Source: an uncultured Acidobacteriota bacterium
GTDB lineage: Bacteria > Acidobacteriota > JAQAZP01
DNA: 64,000 bases
Assembly (NCBI GenBank): GCA_963836075.1
Contig: CAWIIB010000009.1
Span: 3,136,001 to 3,200,000 of the forward strand
Direction of reading: 5' to 3'
Below the pieces are notes generated by a model. It did no database searches and was not told the DNA's origin. It worked only from the letters and a program-made list of their open reading frames with translations. Each line of letters opens with the position of its first letter. Within the stretch, counting starts at the first letter, position 1. Of the stretch, positions 40,137-52,758 are shown one piece after another. Made by a program: the position numbers and the translations under genes.

Positions 40137-43100
40137 TCACCTCTTTCCGAAATACTCGGCGAGCTCGCGGCAGGTGTGGGAGCGGTCCGGGGTGCAGGCC
40201 AGGTCCCGGGGGGGGCCCTGGGCCACCAGGCGTCCGCCGGCGTCACCGCCCTCGGGGCCGAGGTCGATGACGTGGTCGGCCCGGGCGATGAGGTCGAGGT
40301 TGTGCTCGATCACCACCACCGTGTTGCCGGCGTCGGCCAGCCGTTCCAGCACCGTGGCCAGCCGGGCCACGTCACCGGCGTGGAGGCCGGTGGTGGGTTC
40401 CTCGAGGAGGTAGAGGGTGTCGCCGCCATCGGTCCCGGCGGCGGCCAGTTCGGCGGCCAGCTTGATCCGCTGGGCTTCGCCGCCGGAGAGGGTGGGGCTG
40501 GGCTGGCCCAGGGGCAGGTAGCCGAGGCCGATCTCCTCCAGCAGGGTCAGCGGCCGGTGGATGGCCGAAACCTCGGAGAAGAGTTCACGGGCCTCGGCAA
40601 CGGTCATCTCCAGCACCCCGGCGATGCTCCGCCCCCGGAAGCGGACCTCCAGCGTCTCGGGCTCGAAGCGGCGGCCGGCGCAGACGGTGCAGGGGACAAA
40701 GACGTCGGGCAGGAAGCTCATCGCCGCCCGGAGGCGGCCCTGGCCTTCGCAGTTGGGGCAGCGGCCCTGTTTGACGTTGAAGGAGAACCGCCCGGGGCCG
40801 TATCCACGCAGGCGGGATTCGGGCAGGCCGGCAAAGAGCCGGCGGATGCGGTCGTAGAAACCGACGTAGGTGGCGGGCACCGAACGGGGGGTGCGGCCGA
40901 TGGGCGACTGGTCCACCTCCACCGCCCGGGAGACCAGTTGCGCCCCCTCCACGGAGCGGCAGCGGCCCACCGGCGTCGCGGATGTGCGGCGGCGGCTGCG
41001 GGACAGGAGCTGGCGCACATTGCGGTGCAGCACGTCACGAACCAGGGTGCTCTTGCCCGAGCCGGAGACACCGGTGACGCAGCTGAAGATCCCGGTGGGG
41101 ATGACCACGTCGATGTCCTTGAGGTTGTGTTCGGACGCGCCGGTGATCCGGATCCCGCCGGAAGGTGTCCTCACGGTTCTGGCGGCGGCGGCGCGGCGGG
41201 CGCGTTTCCCCTGGCGCAGCCAGCGGCCGGTGACCGAGCGCCTGTCCCGGGCGATCTCCGCCGGACGGCCCACGGCCACCAGTTCGCCGCCCCCGGATCC
41301 GGCGCCGGGGCCGAGGTCGATCACGTGGTCGGCGCTGCGGATGGTCATCTCGTCGTGCTCCACCACCACCACCGTGTTGCCCTTGCGCCGCAGTTTTTTC
41401 AACGTGGCCACCAGCCGCCGGTTGTCCCGGGGGTGCAGGCCGATGGTCGGTTCGTCAAGCACGTAGAGCACGCCGCGGAGGTTGGAGCCCAGCTGGGCGG
41501 CCAGGCGGATCCGCTGGGCCTCGCCGGTGGAGAGGGTGTCCGCCGCGCGGTCCAGTCCGAGGTAGTCGAGGCCCACCTCGCGGAGGAAGGCCAGGCGGGA
41601 CGCGGTTTCGGCGATGATCACCCGGGCCACCCGCAGCTGTCGTTGATCCAGCCCCAGTCCGCCGGCCAGTGCCTCTCCGGCCCGCACCACGTTGAGGGCG
41701 GTGAGGTCGGCGATGGAGAGATCGCCCACCTTGACCGCCAGGGCGGCCGGGTTGAGCCGTTTGCCGTTGCAGACCGGACATGGTTCAGCCGTGACCGGTC
41801 TCTTCGGCCGTCCATTCTCCTCCTCGTCCGGAGCGCCCGCTATCCCGCTGCCCCTGCACTGCGGGCAGTGCCCCAGCGGGCTGTGGAAGGAGAACATCCG
41901 CGGGTCGGGTTCGGGAAACCCGCTGCCGCAGCCCGGACAGCTGCGCCGGGTGCTGAACAGTTCGCCGGGCCCCGGCCGGCCGGCCGCGCTGACCAGCAGC
42001 AGGCCGTCGCCAACCTGCAGGGCCAGGTCCACCGCCTCGCGCAGCCCGGAGCTCACCCGCCGGCCCGAGGCGGGGAGACTGAACCGGCCCACCAGCGTTT
42101 CGATGTCATGTTCTTTGAAACGCGCCAGGTCGGGGAACTTCCGCGAGGCGACCGTCTCGCCATCCACCCGCAGGGTCTCGAACCCTTTGCGCGCGGCCCA
42201 GCGGGCCAACTCCCGGTGAAAGCCCTTGCGCGAGCGGACCAGCGGCGCGTGGATCAATATGGCCTGACCGCGGTATTCCCGGGCCACGGCGGCCGCCACC
42301 GACGTGCGCTGGCGGGCGCCGATGGCAATGCCGCAGTCGGGGCAGTGCTGGAGACCCACCCGGGTGAAGAGCAGCCGCAGGTAGGGATAGATCTCGGTCA
42401 GGGTGGCCACGGTGGAGCGGCGGCTGCCGCGGCTGGTGCGCTGTTCGATGGCCACGGTGGGCGGGATGCCGCTGATGCGGTCCACGTCGGGCCGGGTGAG
42501 CGGGCGGACGTATTGCCGGACATAGGTGGAGAGCGAATCGAGGTAGCGGCGCTGGCCTTCGGCAAAAAGCACGTCAAAGGCGAGGCTCGACTTGCCCGAA
42601 CCGGAGACGCCGGTCACCGCCACCAGGCGGTTCAGCGGCACCTCCACCCGGATGTTGCGGAGGTTGTGCTGGCGGGCGCCCTGGATCACCACCGCCCTGC
42701 CGTTGTCCGGGGCGGTGCGCAGTGCGCGTTTTTTTGTCCTGGCCGGGGAAACGGGCGCGGGATATGCCGGGGCCGGAGGTTCGGCAACTGAAAACAGCTC
42801 CAGGTGGCGGGCCAGGTAGCGTCCGGTGTGCGAACCGGGGTCGGCGGCCACTTCCTCCGGCGTCCCCTGGGCCACCACCCGGCCGCCCAGTTCGCCCCCC
42901 TCCGGGCCGAGGTCGATCACCCGGTCGGCGGCGGCGATCACGTCGAGGTGGTGCTCGATCACCACCAGGCCGTGGCCGGCGTCCAGCAACGGCTCCCAGG
43001 CCCGCAGCAGCTGGGCCACGTCGGCAGGGTGCAGGCCGGTGGTGGGCTCGTCAAAGAGGAACAGCGCCGGCTTGTCGGCGGGCCGGACCCCCGGGCCCAT

Positions 43101-45602
43101 CCGGCCGGCCAGCTTGACCCGCTGGGCCTCACCCCCGGAAAGGGTGCTCAGCGGCTGGCCCAGGCGCAGGTAGCCCAGGCCCACGGTGACCAGCGGCTTC
43201 AGCGCCTGGAGGACCTTGCCGCCGAAGAAGGCCGAGGCTTCGGAGGCGGTCATCTCCAGCACCTCGGCGATGTTGCGGCCTCGCAGCCGCACCTCCAGCA
43301 CCTCGTCCTTGTAGCGGCTGCCGCCGCACTCGGGGCAGGGGAGGTAGATGTCGGAGAGAAACTGCATCTCCACCTTCTCGTGGCCGCTGCCGCTGCAGGT
43401 GGGACAGCGGCCGTCATCGACGTTGAAGGAAAAGGTCCCGGCGTTGAACCCGCGCCGCTCGGCCAGTTCGGTGGCGGCGAACTGGGCCCTGATGGGGGCG
43501 AAGGCCTTGAGGTAGGTGGCGGCATTGGCCCGGGGACTGGACCCCACCGGCGCCTGGTCCACCAGTACCACGTCGGAGAGACGCTCCGCGCCGCGGATGC
43601 CTCTGCAGCGCCCCGGGGGGGCGTGGGGCCGTTGGGGTTTGCCCAGCGCGCGGCGCAGGTTGCGGTAGAGCACCTCCTCCACCAGGGTGCTCTTGCCCGA
43701 ACCGGAGACCCCGGTTACGCAGGTGAGCAGACCGAAGTCGATGCGGACGTCCACCCCCTTGAGGTTGTGCTCGGCGGCGCCCAGCAGACGCACGTTCCGC
43801 CCCCGCCTGGACCGGCGCCGTCCGGCCGGCGGTCTGATCCGCTCGATGCCGGCCAGGTAGCGGCCGGTTCTCGATTCGGCGCAGGCCGCAAGTTCCGCCG
43901 CCGGGCCCTGGTAGACCACCCGGCCCCCCTCTTCGCCCGCGCCGGGTCCCAGGTCCACCGCGTGGTCCGCCGCCCGCATCATCTCCGGGTCGTGCTCCAC
44001 CACCACCACGGTGTTGCCCGCGTCACGCAGCCCCTGGAGCACCTCCACCAGCCGGCCCACGTCCCGGGGGTGCAGGCCGATGCTCGGTTCGTCCAGCACG
44101 AATAGCGTGTTGACCAGCGCCGTGCCCAGGGCGGTGGTCAGGCCGATCCGCTCCACCTCGCCGCCGGAGAGGGTGCGGGACTGCCGGGCGAGGGTGATGT
44201 AGCCCAGGCCCACCCGGCAGAGGTAGTCGAGGCGGTTGCGTACCTCGTCGAGGATCATCCTCGTGGCCGGGTCGTCGGCAAGCTCGGTTTCGATGTGCCG
44301 CAGCCAGCCGAGGGAGCCGTCCACCGGCAGGGCGTTGAAATCGGACAGGGTCAGGCCGCCCAGCCGGTAGAGCAGGGCCTCGGGCTGCAGCCGGGAGCCG
44401 CCGCAGGCGCTGCAGGTGCGGTAGCGCCGGTAGCGGGAGAGCTTCACCCGCACGTGCATCTTGTACGACTTGGTCTCCAGCCATTCAAAATACCCGGCCA
44501 CACCGGGGAAGTCGTCGGTGCCCTCCCAGATCAGACGGCGCGCCTCCCGGTCCAGCTTTCTCCAGGGCACGTCCAACGGGATGCCCCGGCGGCGGCAGAA
44601 GGCGGCCAGCTCCTGCTGGGCCTCGATGAAGGAGCCGGTGGCCCACGGTTTCACCGGGCCCTGGGCAATGGTCTTGTCCCGGTCGGGGACCACCAGCTCG
44701 GGGTCGATTTCGATGATCCGGCCGAACCCCTTGCACCGGGGGCAGGCGCCCACCGGGTCGTTGAAGGAGAAGAGGTTGGGAGAGGGCGGATCGTAGGCGA
44801 TGTCGCAACTTGCGCAGTGGCGGCCGGTGGAGAAGTGCCGCCGCCGATTCTCCCCGGGGAGGAAGACCAGAGCCTTGCCGCGGCCCAGGTCGAGCGCAGC
44901 CTCCAGCGAGCCGGTGATCCGTCCGCTCTCCGCCGGGTCGATGACCAGCCGGTCCAGCACCACCTCGATCAGTTTGCCGCGCCGCCGCTGGGGAATCCCC
45001 TCGAGACCCGCCACCTCCCCGCCGGCGATCACCCGCAGCAGACCCTGGCTCTCCAGGGCCCGGCGCACGTCCGCGGCCGGCAGCCGGCGGGGCACGCTGA
45101 GCGGCATGGCCACCACTGCCTTGCGGCCCGGCCAGGCCTCCAGCAGTTCCCGGCAGATCGATTCCGGCGTGTCGGGGTGCACCGGTTCGCCGCAGCCCCG
45201 GCAATGCAGGGTGGCGGTGCGGGCAAAGAGCAGCTTCAGGTGGTCCTGCAGTTCGGTCATCGTGCCCACGGTTGAGCGCGAACTCTTCAGCGGATCGGTG
45301 CCCTGGATGGCGATGGCCGGGGGGATGCTGATGATACGCCGCACGTCCGGCGGGTTCATCCGGTCGAGGAACTGCCGGGCGTAGGGGGAAAAGGTCTCCA
45401 CGTAGCGTCGCTGGCCTTCGGCGTAGAGCGTATCGAAAGCCAGCGAGGATTTGCCCGAGCCGCTGACTCCGGAGATCACGGTGATCTGCTGCAGCGGCAG
45501 GTCGATGTCCACACCCCTGAGGTTGTGCTGCCTGGCCCCCCGGACCCGGATCACCTCCCGCTTTGCCCGGATCTTTCCTGCTTTCCCGTCCGCCGGTTTC
45601 AT
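40137..45602 (-). CDS. uvrA: Double-length excinuclease ABC subunit A (tandem-fused UvrA)
   Basis: Four GVSGSGKS Walker A motifs; two [22 protein letters not shown] halves; multiple CxxC Zn modules. Confidence 0.93.
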
Positions 45603-45774
45603 GGTGCTGCTCCGTATGTTCCTGCCTGCCACCGGCCCCGGATGGTGGGTGGCGCCGGAAGCGAAGAGCATAGCAGGATTTTCGGGACAAGCACATCGAA
45701 ACAGCGTCCCGTAAGCTCCGGCCGGGGCCTCTTCTCCGGCGCTCAGCCCGGCCGATTTGTGACCGCCCCCATGG

Positions 45775-45804
45775 TTGACCCGGCCACTTTTGCCGTGCTA
45801 GACT
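45775..45804 (+). promoter_or_regulatory. Sigma70 promoter of cyanophycin operon
   Basis: TTGACC-18 nt-TAGACT with TG extended -10. Confidence 0.55.
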
Positions 45805-45878: not shown

Positions 45879-46691
45879 GTGAAGAGAAACGAACAGTTCA
45901 AGGCCAGGCGGGGGTATCTCGTCCTCATCGGCGGTGCCGAGGACCGTACCGGCCAGAAGGAAATACTCCGCCGCACCGTCGAGCTCAACGGTGCGAGCAT
46001 AGTTTCCGTAATCCCCAGTGCCAGCCGCCACCCGGTGGAACTGGCCCGGCAGTATCGTCGGGCCTTTCGTGCACTGGGCGTCAGCCGGGTGCACACCCTC
46101 GACATCCGCAGCCGTGTCGAAGCCGACCTGAACCGTCATGCCGAGCGGATCGCCGAGTCGGACCTGATCTTCTTCACCGGCGGCGACCAGGTTCGTCTGG
46201 TGCGCCTGCTGGGAAACAGCCGGGTGATCGAAGAGGCCCGGCAGCGGTTGCGCCAGGGCGCCACGGTGGCCGGGAGCAGCGCCGGAGCCGCCGCGGCCAG
46301 CGACCCCATGCTCTACGACGGCCAGCTCAAGGGACTGCACAAGGGCCGCGTGCGGCACAGCCACGGGTTCGGCTTCATCAGGGGCATCACCATCGATACC
46401 CATTTCATCCAGCGCAACCGTATCGGCCGCCTGGCCCAGTTTCTGGTCAGCAGCCGCAACGACCGCGGTATCGGGCTCAGCGAGGATACGGCACTGATCA
46501 TCGGGCCGGGGGGCATCGGTGAAGTGGTGGGCCGCGGCACGGTGATCATCCTCAACTCCGAGGGGCTCCGCTACAGCAATTACAAGGAGAGTGAACTGGA
46601 TACGCCCATCTCCCTGCATGGGCTCATGCTGGGCTTTCTCTCGTCCGGCATCCGGTTCAACATCCGGCGGTGGTCCGTTGTGAAATCGTGA
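45879..46691 (+). CDS. cphB: Cyanophycinase (peptidase S51), cytoplasmic
   Basis: LIGGAED, FFTGGDQ, GSSAGA (Ser), IDTHF (His), RNRIGRL, GIGLSEDTA (Glu); no signal peptide. Confidence 0.92.
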   Translation: MKRNEQFKARRGYLVLIGGAEDRTGQKEILRRTVELNGASIVSVIPSASRHPVELARQYRRAFRALGVSRVHTLDIRSRVEADLNRHAERIAESDLIFFTGGDQVRLVRLLGNSRVIEEARQRLRQGATVAGSSAGAAAASDPMLYDGQLKGLHKGRVRHSHGFGFIRGITIDTHFIQRNRIGRLAQFLVSSRNDRGIGLSEDTALIIGPGGIGEVVGRGTVIILNSEGLRYSNYKESELDTPISLHGLMLGFLSSGIRFNIRRWSVVKS

Positions 46692-46713
46692 GAAACGGGA
46701 AAGGAGAGTCCTG

Positions 46714-48603
46714 ATGCAAGATTTCACGGTGCACTCATTCCAGAATTTCATTGGCCCGAATTTCTATCTCGACCGGCAGGCGCTGGTGATCAACCTGCTG
46801 CTGGCCCCGGCAGGTCCCGAGGTGGATTTTTACCGCGATGCGGTGCTGGAAAAGTTCCCCACGCTGGAGCAACGGTACCCGGACCGGGTGGCCGAGCTCT
46901 ACGCGCAGGTCCTGATCCAGGTGATGAAGATGGACATCGACCTGTTCATCAGCAAGTACGCGGTGCACGGCGACGGGGACGACGTCCTGGTGGCGGTGGA
47001 GTATCTGGATAACCTGATTGCCCGGAACTGCGCCGAGTTCGTCTCCCACTGGTTCCGCGCGCTGAACGACGAGGCGTCCTTTGATTTCGACGGCGGCTTC
47101 GTCAAGCTGCAGCAAGAGTTCGACGCCACCGTCTTTGGCGGCCCCACCATCTACTCCCTGATCGAAGCGGGTCTGAAGCGCGACATACCGGTGCTCTACC
47201 TCTACGAGGAAAACGTCTTCATGTGGGGCTACGGCAAGCGGCATGTCCGCGGGCGGTCCACCACTTTCCACACCGACTCGATCAAGGACACCGAGTTCAC
47301 CACCTATAAGGACATGGTCAAGGACTTCCTGCTGATGTGCGGGTTCCCCACACCCAGCGGCCGCAACACCTTCACCGCCGATGACGCGGTGGCCGAAGCC
47401 CACGTGCAGGGCTACCCGGTGGTGGTCAAGCCGCTGGCCGGGCACAAGGGGCAGGGGGTGACCACCGGGATCAAGTCCGACGCCGAAGTGCGCACGGCGT
47501 TCGGCAAGATCCTCGAGTCGTGCCGCGAGGAGGGGGTTTCTTTTGACGGGGCCATCGTGGAGAAGGAGATCTACGGCACCGACCACCGCCTGCTCACGGT
47601 CAACGGCAAATTTGTCGCGGCCCTGGAACGGGTGCCGGCCTATGTGGACGGGGACGGGAAGAACAGCATCAGCGACTTGATCGCCATGGAGAACGACACC
47701 GTGGTCCGCCTGGACAACGCCCGTTCGCCGCTGTGCAAGATCAACATCGACGACGATCTGCGGGAATTCCTCCAGCTGCAGGACCTGTCCCTGGACGTGG
47801 TGCCGGAGAAGGGCCAGCGGATCTATCTGCGGCGGGTGGCCAACATCTCGGCCGGCGGTGTCTCGATCAACGTCACCGACAGGATGCACCCGAAAAACGT
47901 GAAGATGGTGGAGGACATCGCCAAGTTTATCGAGGTGGGGATTCTCGGCATCGACGTGCTGGCCGAGGACATCTCCAAGCCGTGGGACGAGGGGAGTTTC
48001 GGCATCATCGAGATCAACGCCGGGCCCGGCGTGTTCATGCACCTGGCCCCGGCCATCGGCGAGTCGATCGACGTGCCGGGCAAGGTGATGGAGGGCCACT
48101 TCCCGCCGCCGGCCCGGGGGCGGGTGCCGATCATCGCCGGCAACCGGATCGACAGCGGGTTGGCCGGCGAGATCCACAGGATGCTGGACGGCATACGGCC
48201 GGGTCTGGAGTTCGGCGCCCTCACCGCCGACGGCATCCACTTCAACGGCGAGTATTTCCACAACAACAAGCACCACGACGACAACGCCAAGCTGCTGCTG
48301 CGCAACCCGAAGCTCGACGCGGCGCTGTTCAGCCACACCGCGGACCAGATCGACGACTACGGGATGGTGCACCAGGGCGCCGACCTGGTGATCCTGGAAG
48401 AGCCGGAAGGCCCGGAGTCGATAGTGCGGCGCGACCTGCTGCCCGGCGGCTGGCTGGTTGAGGCCGGGGAGGGCCGGGCGGTGATGACCCGGGACGGCGA
48501 GGAGGTGGGCCGACTCTCCTTCGATGAAGCCGGCGGCCGGGACGCGGCGCTGCTCGACCTGGTGGGCCGGGTGTCCGCTGAACTGCTCTCGAAATACGAA
48601 TGA
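46714..48603 (+). CDS. cphA2: Cyanophycin synthetase 2-like (beta-Asp-Arg dipeptide polymerase)
   Basis: 629 aa; GPNFYL, VFGGPTIYSL, RGRSTTF, KPLAGHKGQGVT, RVANISAGGVSI, EINAGPGVFMHL, LLRNPKLD; no Mur P-loop. Matches cyanobacterial CphA2 layout from recall, not a search. Confidence 0.75.
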   Translation: MQDFTVHSFQNFIGPNFYLDRQALVINLLLAPAGPEVDFYRDAVLEKFPTLEQRYPDRVAELYAQVLIQVMKMDIDLFISKYAVHGDGDDVLVAVEYLDNLIARNCAEFVSHWFRALNDEASFDFDGGFVKLQQEFDATVFGGPTIYSLIEAGLKRDIPVLYLYEENVFMWGYGKRHVRGRSTTFHTDSIKDTEFTTYKDMVKDFLLMCGFPTPSGRNTFTADDAVAEAHVQGYPVVVKPLAGHKGQGVTTGIKSDAEVRTAFGKILESCREEGVSFDGAIVEKEIYGTDHRLLTVNGKFVAALERVPAYVDGDGKNSISDLIAMENDTVVRLDNARSPLCKINIDDDLREFLQLQDLSLDVVPEKGQRIYLRRVANISAGGVSINVTDRMHPKNVKMVEDIAKFIEVGILGIDVLAEDISKPWDEGSFGIIEINAGPGVFMHLAPAIGESIDVPGKVMEGHFPPPARGRVPIIAGNRIDSGLAGEIHRMLDGIRPGLEFGALTADGIHFNGEYFHNNKHHDDNAKLLLRNPKLDAALFSHTADQIDDYGMVHQGADLVILEEPEGPESIVRRDLLPGGWLVEAGEGRAVMTRDGEEVGRLSFDEAGGRDAALLDLVGRVSAELLSKYE

Positions 48604-48642
48604 AGCGGGGAGCCGGACCATACCCCGCGCGGAGGGAAGAGG

Positions 48643-49803
48643 ATGATTCTGTTCAAGGGATGTGATCTTTACTCACCCGAACCCCGGGGTGTGAAGGATG
48701 TGCTGGTGGCCGGGGGGCGGGTGGTGGCCGTGGCGGACACCATCGGCGAACCGGCCGGGGTGGAGGTGGAAGTGATCTCCGCCGGCGGGCTGAAAATGGT
48801 CCCCGGTTTTGTCGACGGGCATGTGCACACCGCCGGCGCCGGCGGCGAAGGCGGGCCGGCCACCCGCACGCCGGAGATGCCGCTCTCCTACCTGCTGGAG
48901 GCCGGGGTCACCACGGTGATCGGCTGCCTGGGCACCGACGGACTGACCCGTTCGGTGGAGAGCGTGCTGATGAAGACCAAGGCGCTCAGGGCCGAGGGGG
49001 TCTCCGCGTTCATGCTCACCGGGGCCTACCAGGTCCCCACCCCCACCATCCTTGGTGACGTGGGCAAGGACATCGCCATGATCGACGAGGTGATCGGGGC
49101 GGGGGAGATCGCCGTCTCCGACCACCGCAGTTCCGGGCCCACGGTGGACGAGCTGATCAAACTGGTGGCCCACGCCCGGGTGGGCGGCATGCTGGGCGGC
49201 AAGGGCGGCATCGTCAACTTCCACATGGGCGACGCCAAAAACCCCTTCCAGATCCTCCACGACGTGGTCTCGCGCAGTGAACTTAAATACACCCAGTTCC
49301 TGCCCACCCACTGCAACCGCAACGACTACATCTTCGAGGACACCAAGACGTACGGCAAGACCGGCTACGTCGATATCACCGCCAGCTCCTGGCCCTTCTT
49401 CCCCGAATACGAGACCAAACCGTCCAAGGCCATTGTCCAGCTGCTGGCCGCCGGTGTCCCGCTGGAGCACATCACCATGACCTCCGACGGCTGCGGGTCG
49501 CTGCCCGACTTCGACGAGCAGGGAAACCTGGTCAAGCTGGAGATGGGCAAGCCCAAGTCAGTGCTCGACGAGCTGCGCGACACGGTGCTGGAGGAGAAAC
49601 TCGGGCTGGACCAGGCGGTGCAGGTGGTGAGCACCAACCCGGCGAGGGTCTTCAAGCTGCCGGGCAAGGGCGTGGTGGCCCCCGGCGCCGACGCCGACCT
49701 GCTGCTGCTGGACGGGGAGTTCCGGGTCCACCACATGGTGGCCCGGGGTGCGATGATGGTGCGGGACGCGGTTGCGCTGACCAGGGGCAGCTACGAAGTC
49801 TGA
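48643..49803 (+). CDS. iadA: Isoaspartyl dipeptidase (beta-aspartyl peptidase)
   Basis: PGFVDGHVH, GAGGEGGPATRTPE, GCLGTDG, GEIAVSDHRSS, FHMGD, PTHCNR, TSDGCGSLP. Confidence 0.94.
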   Translation: MILFKGCDLYSPEPRGVKDVLVAGGRVVAVADTIGEPAGVEVEVISAGGLKMVPGFVDGHVHTAGAGGEGGPATRTPEMPLSYLLEAGVTTVIGCLGTDGLTRSVESVLMKTKALRAEGVSAFMLTGAYQVPTPTILGDVGKDIAMIDEVIGAGEIAVSDHRSSGPTVDELIKLVAHARVGGMLGGKGGIVNFHMGDAKNPFQILHDVVSRSELKYTQFLPTHCNRNDYIFEDTKTYGKTGYVDITASSWPFFPEYETKPSKAIVQLLAAGVPLEHITMTSDGCGSLPDFDEQGNLVKLEMGKPKSVLDELRDTVLEEKLGLDQAVQVVSTNPARVFKLPGKGVVAPGADADLLLLDGEFRVHHMVARGAMMVRDAVALTRGSYEV

Positions 49804-49820
49804 GCCGGAAGGAGAGACAG

Positions 49821-52010
49821 GTGAACGAGGACCAGCCCCAGTGCCATCTCGAGGAGGGGCCGCTCCGGGCGCTGGGCATCAAGGTCCTCGCCGGGCCCAA
49901 CTATTTCAGCGCCGGGCCGGTGGTGGCCCTGCGCCTCGACCTGGGCGCCTTTGACGAAGTCTTCACCGCTGATATCCCCGGCTTTGCCGAGCGGTTGCGC
50001 AGACTGCTCCCTTCGCTGCAGAGCCACCACTGCTCGGTGGGCCAGCCGGGCGGGTTCCTCCTGCGGGTCAGCGAAGGGACCCTGCTGGGCCACGTCACCG
50101 AACACGTGGCCATCGAACTGCAGACCCTGGCCGGGATGGACGTGAGTTACGGCAAGACGCGCAGCACGGCCACCCAGGGGGTGTACAATGTCATCTTCCG
50201 GTTCCTCGACGAGGAGGTGGGCCTTTACACCGCCCGCGCCGCGCTGAACCTGGTCAACTCCATCCTGGAGAAACGCCCCTTTGATCCGGCAGCGGTGATC
50301 GGCGACCTGGTGCGCATCCGCGAGGACCGCCTGCTGGGCCCCAGTACCCGGGCGGTGGTGGACCGGGCCGAGCAGCGGGGCATCCCCTGGTACCGGCTGG
50401 ACCGCTACAACCTGGTGCAGCTGGGCACCGGCAAATACCAGAAGCGGGTCCGGGCCACCGTCACCTCGGACACCAGCCTGCTGGCGGTGGAAACCGCGGA
50501 CGACAAGTATCTGACCAACAGCATGCTCGCCGATGCCGGCGTTCCGGTGCCCCCCACGGTGCTGGCCACCGCCGCCGCCGCAGTGGAGGCCTTCCGCAAG
50601 CAGCATCGAACGCCGCTGGTGGTCAAACCGTGCGCCGGGCACCTGGGTCAGGGAATCACCCTGGGGACGTCGACGCCTCAGGCCGTGGAGGAGGCCGTGG
50701 CCCGGGCCCTGCAGTTCGACGACTCGATCATCGCCCAGCCGCAGGTGCCCGGGGAGAGCTACCGCCTGCTGGTGATCAACGGGCAGTGCGTGGCGGCGGC
50801 CCGGCTGGTCCCGCCAATGGTCACCGGTGACGGGCGGCAGACGGTGGAGCAGCTGGTGGCCGGGCTGAACAGCGACCCGGCGCGCGGGGTGGGCGACAAA
50901 TCGAAGCTGAGCCTGGTGGAACCGGACGAGGAGACCGAACGGATTCTCCATCTGGGCGGCCTGACCATGGGCTCGGTGCTGCCCGCCGGCCAATCGTTGG
51001 CTCTCACCATCTCGGGTAACCTGCGCCTGGGCGGGGCGAGCCACGATATCACCGACCAGGTCCACCCGATGAACCGCATGCTCGCCGAGCGGGCGGCGCG
51101 GGCCCTGGGGCTGGACGTGGCCGGTGTGGACGTGGTGGCCCCGTCGCTGGAGCAGTCGATCCTCGACAACGGCGGGGTGGTGATCGAGGTGGGGGCGGCG
51201 CCCGACTTCCGCCTGCACCTCAACCCGCTGTCCGGCCGTCCGCGCGATGTGGCCGTCCCCTTCGTGGAGATGCTCTTCCCCGACGGCGGCCACGGCCGGG
51301 TGCCGGTGGTGGCGGTCACCGGCACCGATGGCAAGACCACCACCGTGGACATCCTGCACCACTGCCTCGCCAGCACCGGCTACCGGGTGGGCCGGGCCAC
51401 CTCCCGGGGGCTGATGGTGGGCGAGGAGGTGCTGATCCGGGGCGAGATGACCGGCTTCGAGAGCGCGGCGATGACCCTGCGCGACCCGACCATCGACTGC
51501 GCCCTGCTGGAAGTGCCGGTGGAGACGATTCTCGACCGCGGCCTGGGCTACCAGTTTGCCGACATCGCCGTGGTGCTCAATCTGCGTGACGAGGGGCTGC
51601 TCTACGACGAGGCCGCGATCATGGAGGACATCGCCTACGCCCACTCGGTGGTTGCCGAACAGGTCTACGAGGACGGGCACACCGTGCTCAACGCCGATGA
51701 CCAGCTGGTCCTCGAGATGGGGGAACGTCTCTACAGCACACCGGTGCTCTTTTCGCGGGATCCGGGTAACCCGGCGGTGGTTGAGCTGGCCGCGGCCGGC
51801 GGCCGGGTGGTGACGGTGGAGGATGGACAGGTGGTGGTCATCGACCGGGGTGAACGGACCCAACTGACCGCGCTGGAAGCCATCCCCCTGCTGGCCGGCG
51901 AGGACGGTACTCTGAACCTGGACAACGTGCTGGCCGCGTCAGCGGTCCTCTACTGTTTCGGCGCCTCCGTGGAGCGGATCACCGAAACCCTGCTGGGGTT
52001 CAGAAAGTAA
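49821..52010 (+). CDS. cphA: Cyanophycin synthetase 1-like protein, C-terminally short with degenerate ligase motifs
   Basis: GPNYFS, Cx19HxxEH, LGPST, VQLGTGKYQKR, VTGTDGKTTT; ends at LLGFRK before the Mur lid domain. Confidence 0.8.
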   Translation: MNEDQPQCHLEEGPLRALGIKVLAGPNYFSAGPVVALRLDLGAFDEVFTADIPGFAERLRRLLPSLQSHHCSVGQPGGFLLRVSEGTLLGHVTEHVAIELQTLAGMDVSYGKTRSTATQGVYNVIFRFLDEEVGLYTARAALNLVNSILEKRPFDPAAVIGDLVRIREDRLLGPSTRAVVDRAEQRGIPWYRLDRYNLVQLGTGKYQKRVRATVTSDTSLLAVETADDKYLTNSMLADAGVPVPPTVLATAAAAVEAFRKQHRTPLVVKPCAGHLGQGITLGTSTPQAVEEAVARALQFDDSIIAQPQVPGESYRLLVINGQCVAAARLVPPMVTGDGRQTVEQLVAGLNSDPARGVGDKSKLSLVEPDEETERILHLGGLTMGSVLPAGQSLALTISGNLRLGGASHDITDQVHPMNRMLAERAARALGLDVAGVDVVAPSLEQSILDNGGVVIEVGAAPDFRLHLNPLSGRPRDVAVPFVEMLFPDGGHGRVPVVAVTGTDGKTTTVDILHHCLASTGYRVGRATSRGLMVGEEVLIRGEMTGFESAAMTLRDPTIDCALLEVPVETILDRGLGYQFADIAVVLNLRDEGLLYDEAAIMEDIAYAHSVVAEQVYEDGHTVLNADDQLVLEMGERLYSTPVLFSRDPGNPAVVELAAAGGRVVTVEDGQVVVIDRGERTQLTALEAIPLLAGEDGTLNLDNVLAASAVLYCFGASVERITETLLGFRK

Positions 52011-52039
52011 AAATGGGGACGGTAAACGTCCCCATTTTT
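52009..52039. terminator. Bidirectional terminator
   Basis: AAAAATGGGGACG-GTAAA-CGTCCCCATTTTT between convergent stop codons. Confidence 0.8.
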
Positions 52040-52758
52040 TACACCCGGCCGAAGAGCTGCAGCAGCCGCAGCTTGAACACCACCCAGATCGATTCCCAGA
52101 TGATCGATTTGGAGATCTTCGACTGCCCTTCACGCCGTTCCTGGAAGATGATGGGGATCTCACCGAGACGGAACCCCTTTCTCCAGGCCAGAAAGCTCAT
52201 CTCGATCAGGAAGACGTAGCCGTTGGAGCGGATCCCTGCCAGGTCGATGGCCTCCAGCACCTCGCGGCGGTAGCAGCGGTAGCCGCTGGTGATGTCTTTC
52301 AGCGGCAGCCCGGTGACCAGACGGGCATAGAGGTTGGCCCAGGTGCTGAGGATCAACCGCCGCAGGGGCCAGTCCAGCACCCGTACACCGCCGATATAGC
52401 GGGATCCCTGGACCACGTCGAAGCGGCCGGCGGCTTCGATCATCCTGGGGATCTCCCGCGGGTCGTGGGAGAAATCGGCGTCCATGCCGATGATGGTCTG
52501 GTAGCCCCGCTCCAGGGCGAAGTTGAACCCGGCAACGTAGGCCGTTCCCAGCCCCCGCTGGTTCTTGCGCCGGATCAGGTGCAGCCGGCTGGCCTCGGCG
52601 ATCCTGGCTTCCACAACCTCCCAGGTGCGGTCCGGGGAATCGTCGTCCACCACCAGCAGGTCCACCTCGGGTGCGTGGACGAAGATCGCATCGATCATCC
52701 GACCGATGTTCTCCCGCTCTTCGTAGGTTGGAATGACCACCAGGGTGCTGTTCTGCAT
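52039..52758 (-). CDS. Polyprenol monophosphomannose synthase (GT2, Dpm1/Ppm1-like)
   Basis: IPTYEERENI, VDDDSPDRT, GLGTAY, MDADFSHDP, GSRY, DITSGYRCYR, ERREGQSK. Confidence 0.9.
   Translation of the reverse strand: MQNSTLVVIPTYEERENIGRMIDAIFVHAPEVDLLVVDDDSPDRTWEVVEARIAEASRLHLIRRKNQRGLGTAYVAGFNFALERGYQTIIGMDADFSHDPREIPRMIEAAGRFDVVQGSRYIGGVRVLDWPLRRLILSTWANLYARLVTGLPLKDITSGYRCYRREVLEAIDLAGIRSNGYVFLIEMSFLAWRKGFRLGEIPIIFQERREGQSKISKSIIWESIWVVFKLRLLQLFGRV

Follow-up and report, generated by a model that had tools for sequence, protein, structure and literature searches.

A unit of four genes, cphB-cphA2-iadA-cphA1, occupies positions 45879 to 52010 on the plus strand of the 64,000-nucleotide stretch of DNA analyzed here (the window; contig CAWIIB010000009.1 of assembly GCA_963836075.1). 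Comparison with known families and structures supports the identity of all four genes well: a cyanophycinase, predicted to be intracellular; a cyanophycin synthetase of the CphA2 clade; an isoaspartyl dipeptidase; and a CphA1 that ends where the lid of its M domain would begin. From these identities we infer, with a probability of roughly 0.55, that the unit is a cassette for cyanophycin storage and turnover around the CphA2-type enzyme, fed by the dipeptide beta-Asp-Arg, with little or no de novo synthesis. CphA2, described as a cyanobacterial enzyme, has a wider distribution, and here it may store nitrogen from salvaged dipeptides; the clade travels in a compact cphB-cphA2-iadA-cphA1 cassette whose CphA1 partner often lacks the lid domain needed for efficient attachment of Arg, raising the question of where the Asp-Arg isopeptide bond originates in such cells.

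A CphA2-type synthetase outside the cyanobacteria

The synthetase encoded by the second gene (46714-48603, plus strand; 629 amino acids) aligns nearly end to end with a solved CphA2 structure, residues 4-605 pairing with 9-604 of the 629-residue chain 7TA5, and scores much higher against CphA2 chains (476.1 bits for 7TA5, 434.8 bits for 8FXH) than against CphA1 chains (215-227 bits); by BLASTP it is 37-42% identical over about 600 residues to cyanobacterial-type representatives, but 26-29% identical over 423 residues to CphA1 forms. We take 7TA5 and 8FXH to be the Gloeothece and Stanieria CphA2 structures. The basis for this identification is that residue numbers in our alignments (S148, D197; D362, R389, N393, S395) agree with those given in PMC10273328. 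In the protein, an N domain is followed by an ATP-grasp G domain and by a vestigial M domain that has neither P-loop nor lid. As an earlier note on this DNA had read directly from the letters, the ATP-grasp motifs are intact (KPLAGHKG at residue 239, ANISAGG at 376, EINAGPG at 433), and a motif check of the protein found neither a GxxGK[TS] P-loop nor an HxxEH, in agreement with published descriptions of CphA2 (PMC9262961, PMC9427784).

Mutagenesis of StCphA2 and GcCphA2 has singled out seven positions (D362, R389, N393, S395, R308, T163, and D212 in StCphA2 numbering; PMC10273328) where a change lowers activity or destroys it. Mapped by hand onto the printed structure alignment, six of the seven are identical in the 629-residue protein (D346, R373, N377, S379, R292, T145) and the seventh, D212, is conservatively replaced by E194; all seven mapped positions are invariant among 18 relatives. 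At two primer-contact positions, I190 for H208 and E194 for D212, the protein has the CphA1 state. We conclude that, as judged from sequence and structure alignment, the earlier reading of a CphA2 layout was right, and that the protein is a member of the CphA2 clade with an intact ATP-grasp site and with conserved primer and putative dipeptide-site residues; it would be expected to polymerize beta-Asp-Arg with ATP. One relative (P0043, 922 amino acids), 57% identical to the 629-residue protein across its full length and credited with an additional Peptidase_S51 domain in a precomputed Pfam list, is apparently a CphA2-type synthetase-cyanophycinase fusion.

The phylogeny that the earlier note had called for points the same way. 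Tree rows comprised relatives from a word-indexed search, CphA1-type homologues, and representatives picked from the results of an exhaustive search by profile; cyanobacterial-type rows were labeled by PDB scores alone (P0252, 900.5 bits to 8FXH; P0249, 635.3 bits), and no labeled betaproteobacterial CphA/CphA' pairs were among them. FastTree splits 69 rows into 24 CphA2-type and 45 CphA1-type sequences with support of 100, and IQ-TREE (LG+G4, short search) splits 42 rows into 18 and 24 with SH-aLRT of 100; both trees are unrooted, many rows are of atypical composition, and IQ-TREE flagged one CphA1 row for its long branch. In both, the 629-residue protein branches on the CphA2 side of this deepest split, in a separate, well-supported, non-cyanobacterial subclade apart from the cyanobacterial-type pair. 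As placed in these trees, the cyanobacterial sequences show as one branch inside a CphA2 clade that is broad beyond cyanobacteria.

The genes on either side of the synthetase were also identified correctly in the earlier note, both products scoring above curated family cut-offs. The 270-residue CphB (45879-46691, plus strand), a peptidase S51, matches TIGR02069 with 197.5 bits (cut-off 126.6) as well as PF03575, and its translation, judged by eye, has no hydrophobic N-terminus; the 386-residue isoaspartyl (beta-aspartyl) dipeptidase IadA (48643-49803, plus strand) matches TIGR01975 with 460.5 bits (cut-off 331.25), protein residues 2-385 lying on profile positions 2-389. Between the four open reading frames lie 22, 39, and 17 nucleotides, and their third-position GC of 0.83-0.90 is similar to that of neighboring genes.

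The host is not a cyanobacterium, as had been supposed when nothing else in the window looked cyanobacterial. No match to Photo_RC was found in the host genome (6.23 Mb in 10 contigs; completeness 94.7%, contamination 4.6%), whereas a Synechococcus control matches; and among the 120 relatives listed for the host RpoB, three are 86% identical and the rest 63-67%, the six that are named being five Acidobacteriota lineages and one Acidimicrobiia, with one further name, "Acidobacteria bacterium," coming from a cluster member of one listed relative. The host is probably acidobacterial, on what is a weak indication from the RpoB comparison. A planctomycete host, suggested by metagenome-assembled genomes (MAGs) labeled Phycisphaerales that carry the closest named relatives of the 629-residue protein (62-67% identity), was considered and rejected: over a partial stretch, the host RpoB is 58-61% identical to that of the Phycisphaerales-labeled MAGs, a level that does not set them apart from Bacteroidales or others. 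The planctomycete-typical PSD1 family had no match in the host genome or in any control genome, and is therefore uninformative. Sediment metagenomes of freshwater, salt-marsh, and marine origin contain this DNA.

Nor is a CphA2-type gene outside cyanobacteria rare. When one genome per species was scanned with sequence patterns, at least 137 stretches proved to encode relatives of the 629-residue protein. Of the 80 best, which were retained, the record titles place 57 in Bacteroidota, 4 in Planctomycetota, 3 in Cloacimonadota, 2 each in Thermodesulfobacteriota, Acidobacteriota, and Spirochaetota, and 1 each in Muiribacteriota, Bacillota, Chlorobiota, and Sumerlaeota, and leave 6 unplaced; the lack of cyanobacteria in the list is meaningless, since the scan was built on non-cyanobacterial sequences. 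Clusters listed by the ESM Atlas are most frequent in Cyanobacteriota, Pseudomonadota, and Planctomycetota, which is a lead at most. The CphA2-type gene is adjoined by one or more of cphB, iadA, and a cphA1-type gene in 45 of the 80 loci, many of which are cut by contig ends; the adjacent CphA1 is short in 12 loci (two of these cut by contig ends, and one only 510 residues long) and full length in 6. Cassettes recur in MAGs bearing the labels of at least eight phyla. The same order, cphB, cphA2-type, iadA, cphA1-type, recurs in MAGs labeled Planctomycetota, Bacteroidota, Cloacimonadota, and Muiribacteriota, and a Thermoanaerobaculia locus has all four cassette genes, with overlapping open reading frame calls. 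Among 53 flanking open reading frames scanned at 12 cassette loci, no transporter or other neighbor family recurs across lineages. About 35 of the 80 loci, mostly Bacteroidota, carry instead a stand-alone paralogue, typically of about 670 residues; this form (loci L015-L083) has an N-terminal extension of about 40 residues and no cphB or iadA neighbor, and several MAGs have both it and the cassette form. Two loci (L074, L080) have tandem full-length cphA1-type genes (889 and 879 residues; 883 and 879 residues) downstream of the CphA2-type gene and iadA, an arrangement that recalls CphA/CphA' pairs.

A CphA1 partner that ends before the lid

The last gene of the unit (49821-52010, plus strand) encodes a protein of 729 residues that matches TIGR02068 over positions 4-713 of 862 with 773.2 bits, under the cut-off of 850. 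PF18921 and PF08245 were also matched; Mur_ligase_C (PF02875) was not, and no match to profile positions 716-862 was found near the gene in any frame. Residues 17-724 align with 3-718 of TeCphA1 (7WAC; 521.7 bits), in which Mcore spans 488-723 and Mlid 724-876 (PMC9427784). By this alignment, the protein is a CphA1 ending at the border between Mcore and Mlid. It keeps i) the N domain with Cx19HxxEH (residues 71-95), which gives CphA1 its primer independence (PMC9262961); ii) the G domain; and iii) the M-domain P-loop GTDGKT (K505, T506) and the Mg-binding E564. Other catalytic motifs of Mcore look degenerate: V567, D572, and G592 replace R567, R572, and H592, the last of these being the conserved DH-motif His. 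Arg731 and His748, which in the TeCphA1 Mlid contact the ATP phosphates (PMC9427784), have no counterpart. In TeCphA1, engineered deletion of Mlid left activity substantially reduced (PMC9427784). The protein had been taken for an ordinary second synthetase, a view that its score below the TIGR02068 cut-off, its missing Mlid, and its lost near-invariant residues do not bear out.

The short 3′ end of the gene is no assembly artifact, because independent contigs bridge it: contigs from two separate studies span the stop codon, the hairpin that follows, and the 3′ end of the convergent gene beyond without differences (X1 record 8 covers 51913-52097; X3 record 15 covers 51988-52104), and two further runs gave contigs 96-97% alike whose match is lost at 51999. 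The hairpin (52007-52042), preceded by a stretch of A and followed by one of T, is a predicted bidirectional terminator (-21.7 kcal/mol, z = -5.08; 0 of 200 shuffles equally stable) that separates the gene from a convergent GT2 glycosyltransferase gene; a consensus terminator scan missed it, and inspection and folding of the sequence brought it out. Of the promoter and terminator said to bound the unit, the terminator therefore holds, as a strong hairpin, and the promoter does not: a consensus scan found a single weak sigma-70-like site on the plus strand (45775-45804; TTGACC, 18-nucleotide spacer, TAGACT), with 9 of 12 consensus matches, against 0.5 ± 0.7 sites expected from shuffles, which is within chance and carries no evidence. 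Upstream, a divergent minus-strand gene (40137-45671) encodes a duplicated UvrA-like protein of 1844 residues, which has a pair of UvrA interaction domains plus several regions of ABC ATPase type; it also adjoins the operon in a MAG of the same genus (L009).

Whether a complete CphA1 lies elsewhere in the genome was another point raised in the earlier note. In a six-frame profile search of the host genome (94.7% complete), we found none; matches to the CphA1 profile were restricted to the two genes of the window, their copies on contig C10, and weaker hits on its Mur-ligase or ATP-grasp portions, scoring 103.5 bits or less. C10 (21.9 kb) is 82-85% identical to, and syntenic with, window positions 31782-53282, and has about 40 gap openings in the operon as well as frame breaks; its cphA1-type gene ends at profile position 714, like that of the window, and the contig is probably a strain variant or a contaminant. 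Just after the short cphA1 of C10 (20432-20607), and missing at that place in the window, lies a copy of a dispersed repeat of about 176 bp, whose copies are 76-87% alike and occur also on C9 (near 60327, 508798, 758847, 787049, 2001520, 2971388, and 3369554) and C1 (near 499278).

A comparison of 120 CphA1-type homologues, 74 full length (at least 860 residues) and 46 short (at most 760 residues), shows that the window protein belongs to a distinct length class, 44 members having 720-748 residues. The P-loop residues, invariant in full-length forms (K505 and T506, each 74/74), are often kept in short ones (38/46 and 30/46), whereas other M-domain residues that are nearly invariant in full-length forms (R567, 60/74; R572, 72/74; H592, 71/74; G594, 72/74) are mostly lost (3/46, 14/46, 7/46, and 11/46, respectively). 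Relaxation is confined to the same domain: mean column identity, short versus full length, is 0.753 versus 0.743 in N, 0.636 versus 0.657 in G, but 0.561 versus 0.657 in Mcore, and Cx19HxxEH is present in 46/46 short and 74/74 full-length forms. In the G domain, two departures from cyanobacterial CphA1, Ser396 to Arg or Lys and Arg323 to Leu, say nothing about short forms specifically, because full-length members of the same subclade share them. The short and full-length states require at least 10 changes on a 118-row tree of CphA1-type sequences from which the Mlid columns were excluded (FastTree topology only; two rows, of 710 and 716 residues, left out), and on that topology Mlid-less CphA1 partners arose repeatedly.

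Every one of the 26 distinct CphA2-bearing genomes examined has a CphA1-type gene. The best such gene is short, and unaccompanied by a second CphA1-type match, in 12, cut by a contig end in 3, and full length in 6; in the remaining 5 it is a long frame whose C-terminal profile match reaches only to positions 755-837. No full-length CphA1 was found in the host or in 11 further genomes whose sole CphA1-type gene is short. Within the phylum of the host, 7 of 301 sampled genomes have a CphA2-type gene and 45 have a CphA match, which in 38 is full length and above cut-off; the short-only state is found in 3 of the 7 CphA2-positive genomes versus none of the 38 CphA2-negative genomes with a CphA match, but these 3 genomes all belong to the genus of the host and count as one event. 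Stand-alone M-domain genes (CphA1 profile positions about 477-860, about 290-450 bits) sit beside full-length cphA1 in at least 17 pairs among genomes of the phylum (for example G012:C1:1627638-1628798 beside cphA1 at 1624331-1626958); there is none in the genome of the window.

Possible origin of the dipeptide

We propose that the CphA2-type enzyme would polymerize beta-Asp-Arg with ATP into granules, from which CphB would set the dipeptide free again and IadA would split it into Asp and Arg; since IadA cleaves the same dipeptide, CphA2 and IadA would compete for one pool. The short CphA1 would no longer attach Arg efficiently, and would act mainly through two domains, N (by generating primers) and G. 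Recycling together with scavenging of extracellular cyanophycin would be a likelier source of the dipeptides than de novo synthesis. The earlier note had drawn a dipeptide cycle with a branch point between CphA2 and IadA: the branch stands as a reasonable inference, but feeding of the cycle from the cell's own de novo cyanophycin is doubtful, because the 729-residue protein lacks Mlid and key residues and no full-length CphA1 was found.

A second locus, on C1 at about 1495520-1501194 (L094:7520-13194, minus strand), bears on scavenging. Three co-directional genes in a row encode i) an 896-residue TonB-type outer-membrane barrel with a CarboxypepD_reg domain; ii) a 445-residue cyanophycinase (TIGR02069, 131-133 bits; cut-off 126.6) whose hydrophobic N-terminal segment followed by Cys, as judged by eye, suggests export; and iii) a 574-residue transporter of the DcuC/YfcC family (NF008611, 399 bits, under the cut-off of 500). 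Its gene content suggests that the row serves to scavenge cyanophycin from outside the cell. Scavenging loci of cyanophycinase, dipeptidase, and transporter have been described (PMC10206079), and bacterial scavenging of, and growth on, beta-Asp-Arg are documented (PMC9974463).

Several observations weigh against a dipeptide-fed cassette with little or no de novo synthesis. The P-loop GTDGKT and E564 are retained in the short CphA1, and residual Arg ligation is possible. The G domain of short forms is as conserved as that of full-length forms, and addition of Asp alone would be useless without ligation of Arg, which leaves two options, a still active M site or a G domain with a changed substrate. 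TeCphA1 M-domain mutants are reported to have gained no CphA2 activity (PMC9427784). The 445-residue cyanophycinase is barely above the family cut-off, its export signal is a judgment by eye, and a second cyanophycinase match is present in 14 of 25 other CphA2-bearing genomes, so the scavenging part is not general. Most of the genomes compared are MAGs whose completeness is not established, and the roles of both non-cyanobacterial CphA2-type proteins and natural Mlid-less CphA1s are predictions from sequence.

The most serious alternative, although we consider it rather improbable, is that the 729-residue protein works as a lid-less CphA1 and builds cyanophycin de novo out of Asp and Arg, while CphA2 only re-polymerizes the dipeptides that CphB releases. 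It would account for the retained P-loop and E564; for a conserved class of 720-748 residues (44 of 120 homologues), which argues for function over decay; and for the retention of a CphA1-type gene in 26/26 CphA2-bearing genomes; and the activity of the TeCphA1 Mlid deletion mutant was "substantially reduced," not zero (PMC9427784). It sits badly with the loss, in the window protein and most short forms, of the near-invariant H592 (kept in 7/46), R567 (3/46), and R572 (14/46), with relaxed conservation in Mcore alone, and with the want of any counterpart for the ATP-phosphate contacts Arg731 and His748.

A split or hetero-oligomeric synthetase seems to us unlikely, and clearly more so than a working lid-less CphA1. 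Here either the CphA2-type protein or an altered G domain of the short CphA1 would form the Asp-Arg isopeptide bond, and the two proteins would carry out de novo synthesis jointly, without Mur-ligase chemistry. Such a partnership would fit the sharing of a cassette by short CphA1 and CphA2-type genes in 12 of 80 loci, the repeated loss of Mlid (at least 10 state changes on the 118-row tree), and, as a single event in one genus, the short-only state of 3 of 7 CphA2-positive versus none of 38 CphA2-negative genomes of the phylum; but the active-site residues of the CphA2-type protein agree with those of characterized dipeptide polymerases and give no sign of a new reaction.

Decay of the short CphA1, and perhaps of the whole unit, into a non-functional remnant is very improbable: against the degenerate M-domain motifs and the frame breaks of the 82-85% identical C10 copy stand four open frames with gene-like codon bias in the window, N and G domains conserved in short forms as in full-length ones, the same four-gene order in MAGs labeled with several phyla, and the fact that C10 is short and looks like a strain variant or contaminant.

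A dipeptide-fed cassette could take a more extreme form, which we advance only tentatively and would not expect to hold as readily as the weaker proposal: that such cells never make cyanophycin de novo, their store being built only from beta-Asp-Arg salvaged from the cyanophycin of other organisms by two polymerases that use only their G domains, the CphA2-type enzyme and a primer-supplying Mlid-less CphA1, and that this lifestyle favored repeated loss of the Arg-ligating lid across several phyla. For enzymology and cyanophycin production, CphA1s that lack Mlid by nature and divergent CphA2s are available as material.

Comparison with known systems

That CphA2 has been described from cyanobacteria is borne out by papers of the leading groups in cyanophycin structural work; PMC9974463 states that it is present only in cyanobacteria that also have CphA1, a distribution breached here on both counts, by a non-cyanobacterial host and by a genome in which no full-length CphA1 was found. 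The literature searched, supplementary tables lying outside the search, gave no account of a non-cyanobacterial CphA2 clade, of this cassette, or of a natural Mlid-less CphA1; from 2022 on, it held nothing on non-cyanobacterial CphA2, and matches to cphA2 or cphA3 were mostly papers on Aeromonas resistance genes. The nearest statement is a brief remark in the genome announcement of Bacillus horikoshii 20a, which mentions CphAs with residues of the Asp site but without those of the Arg site and likens them to CphA2/CphA2' (PMC5532821); by that description only, they may be set beside the present cassette.

Like cyanobacterial CphA2 (7TA5, 8FXH/8FXI), the 629-residue protein consists of about 630 residues in N, G, and vestigial M domains, has a cyanophycinase gene next to it, lacks the M-domain P-loop, Mlid, and HxxEH, and is identical at six of seven tested residues; unlike it, the protein (37-42% identical) belongs to a separate subclade, has I190 and E194 in the CphA1 state, and has iadA in its operon. 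The 729-residue protein resembles CphA1 (TeCphA1, 7WAC; SuCphA1, 7LG5) in its N, G, and Mcore domains, its Cx19HxxEH, and its P-loop, but differs in lacking Mlid, the His of the DH motif, and two near-invariant Arg, and corresponds to the engineered Mlid-deletion mutant of TeCphA1 (PMC9427784). Finally, the row of receptor, cyanophycinase, and YfcC-like transporter on C1, together with iadA in the window, resembles the cyanophycin utilization loci of PMC10206079, except that here the scavenging genes coexist with two synthetase-type genes, so that salvaged dipeptide could be stored, beyond mere consumption.

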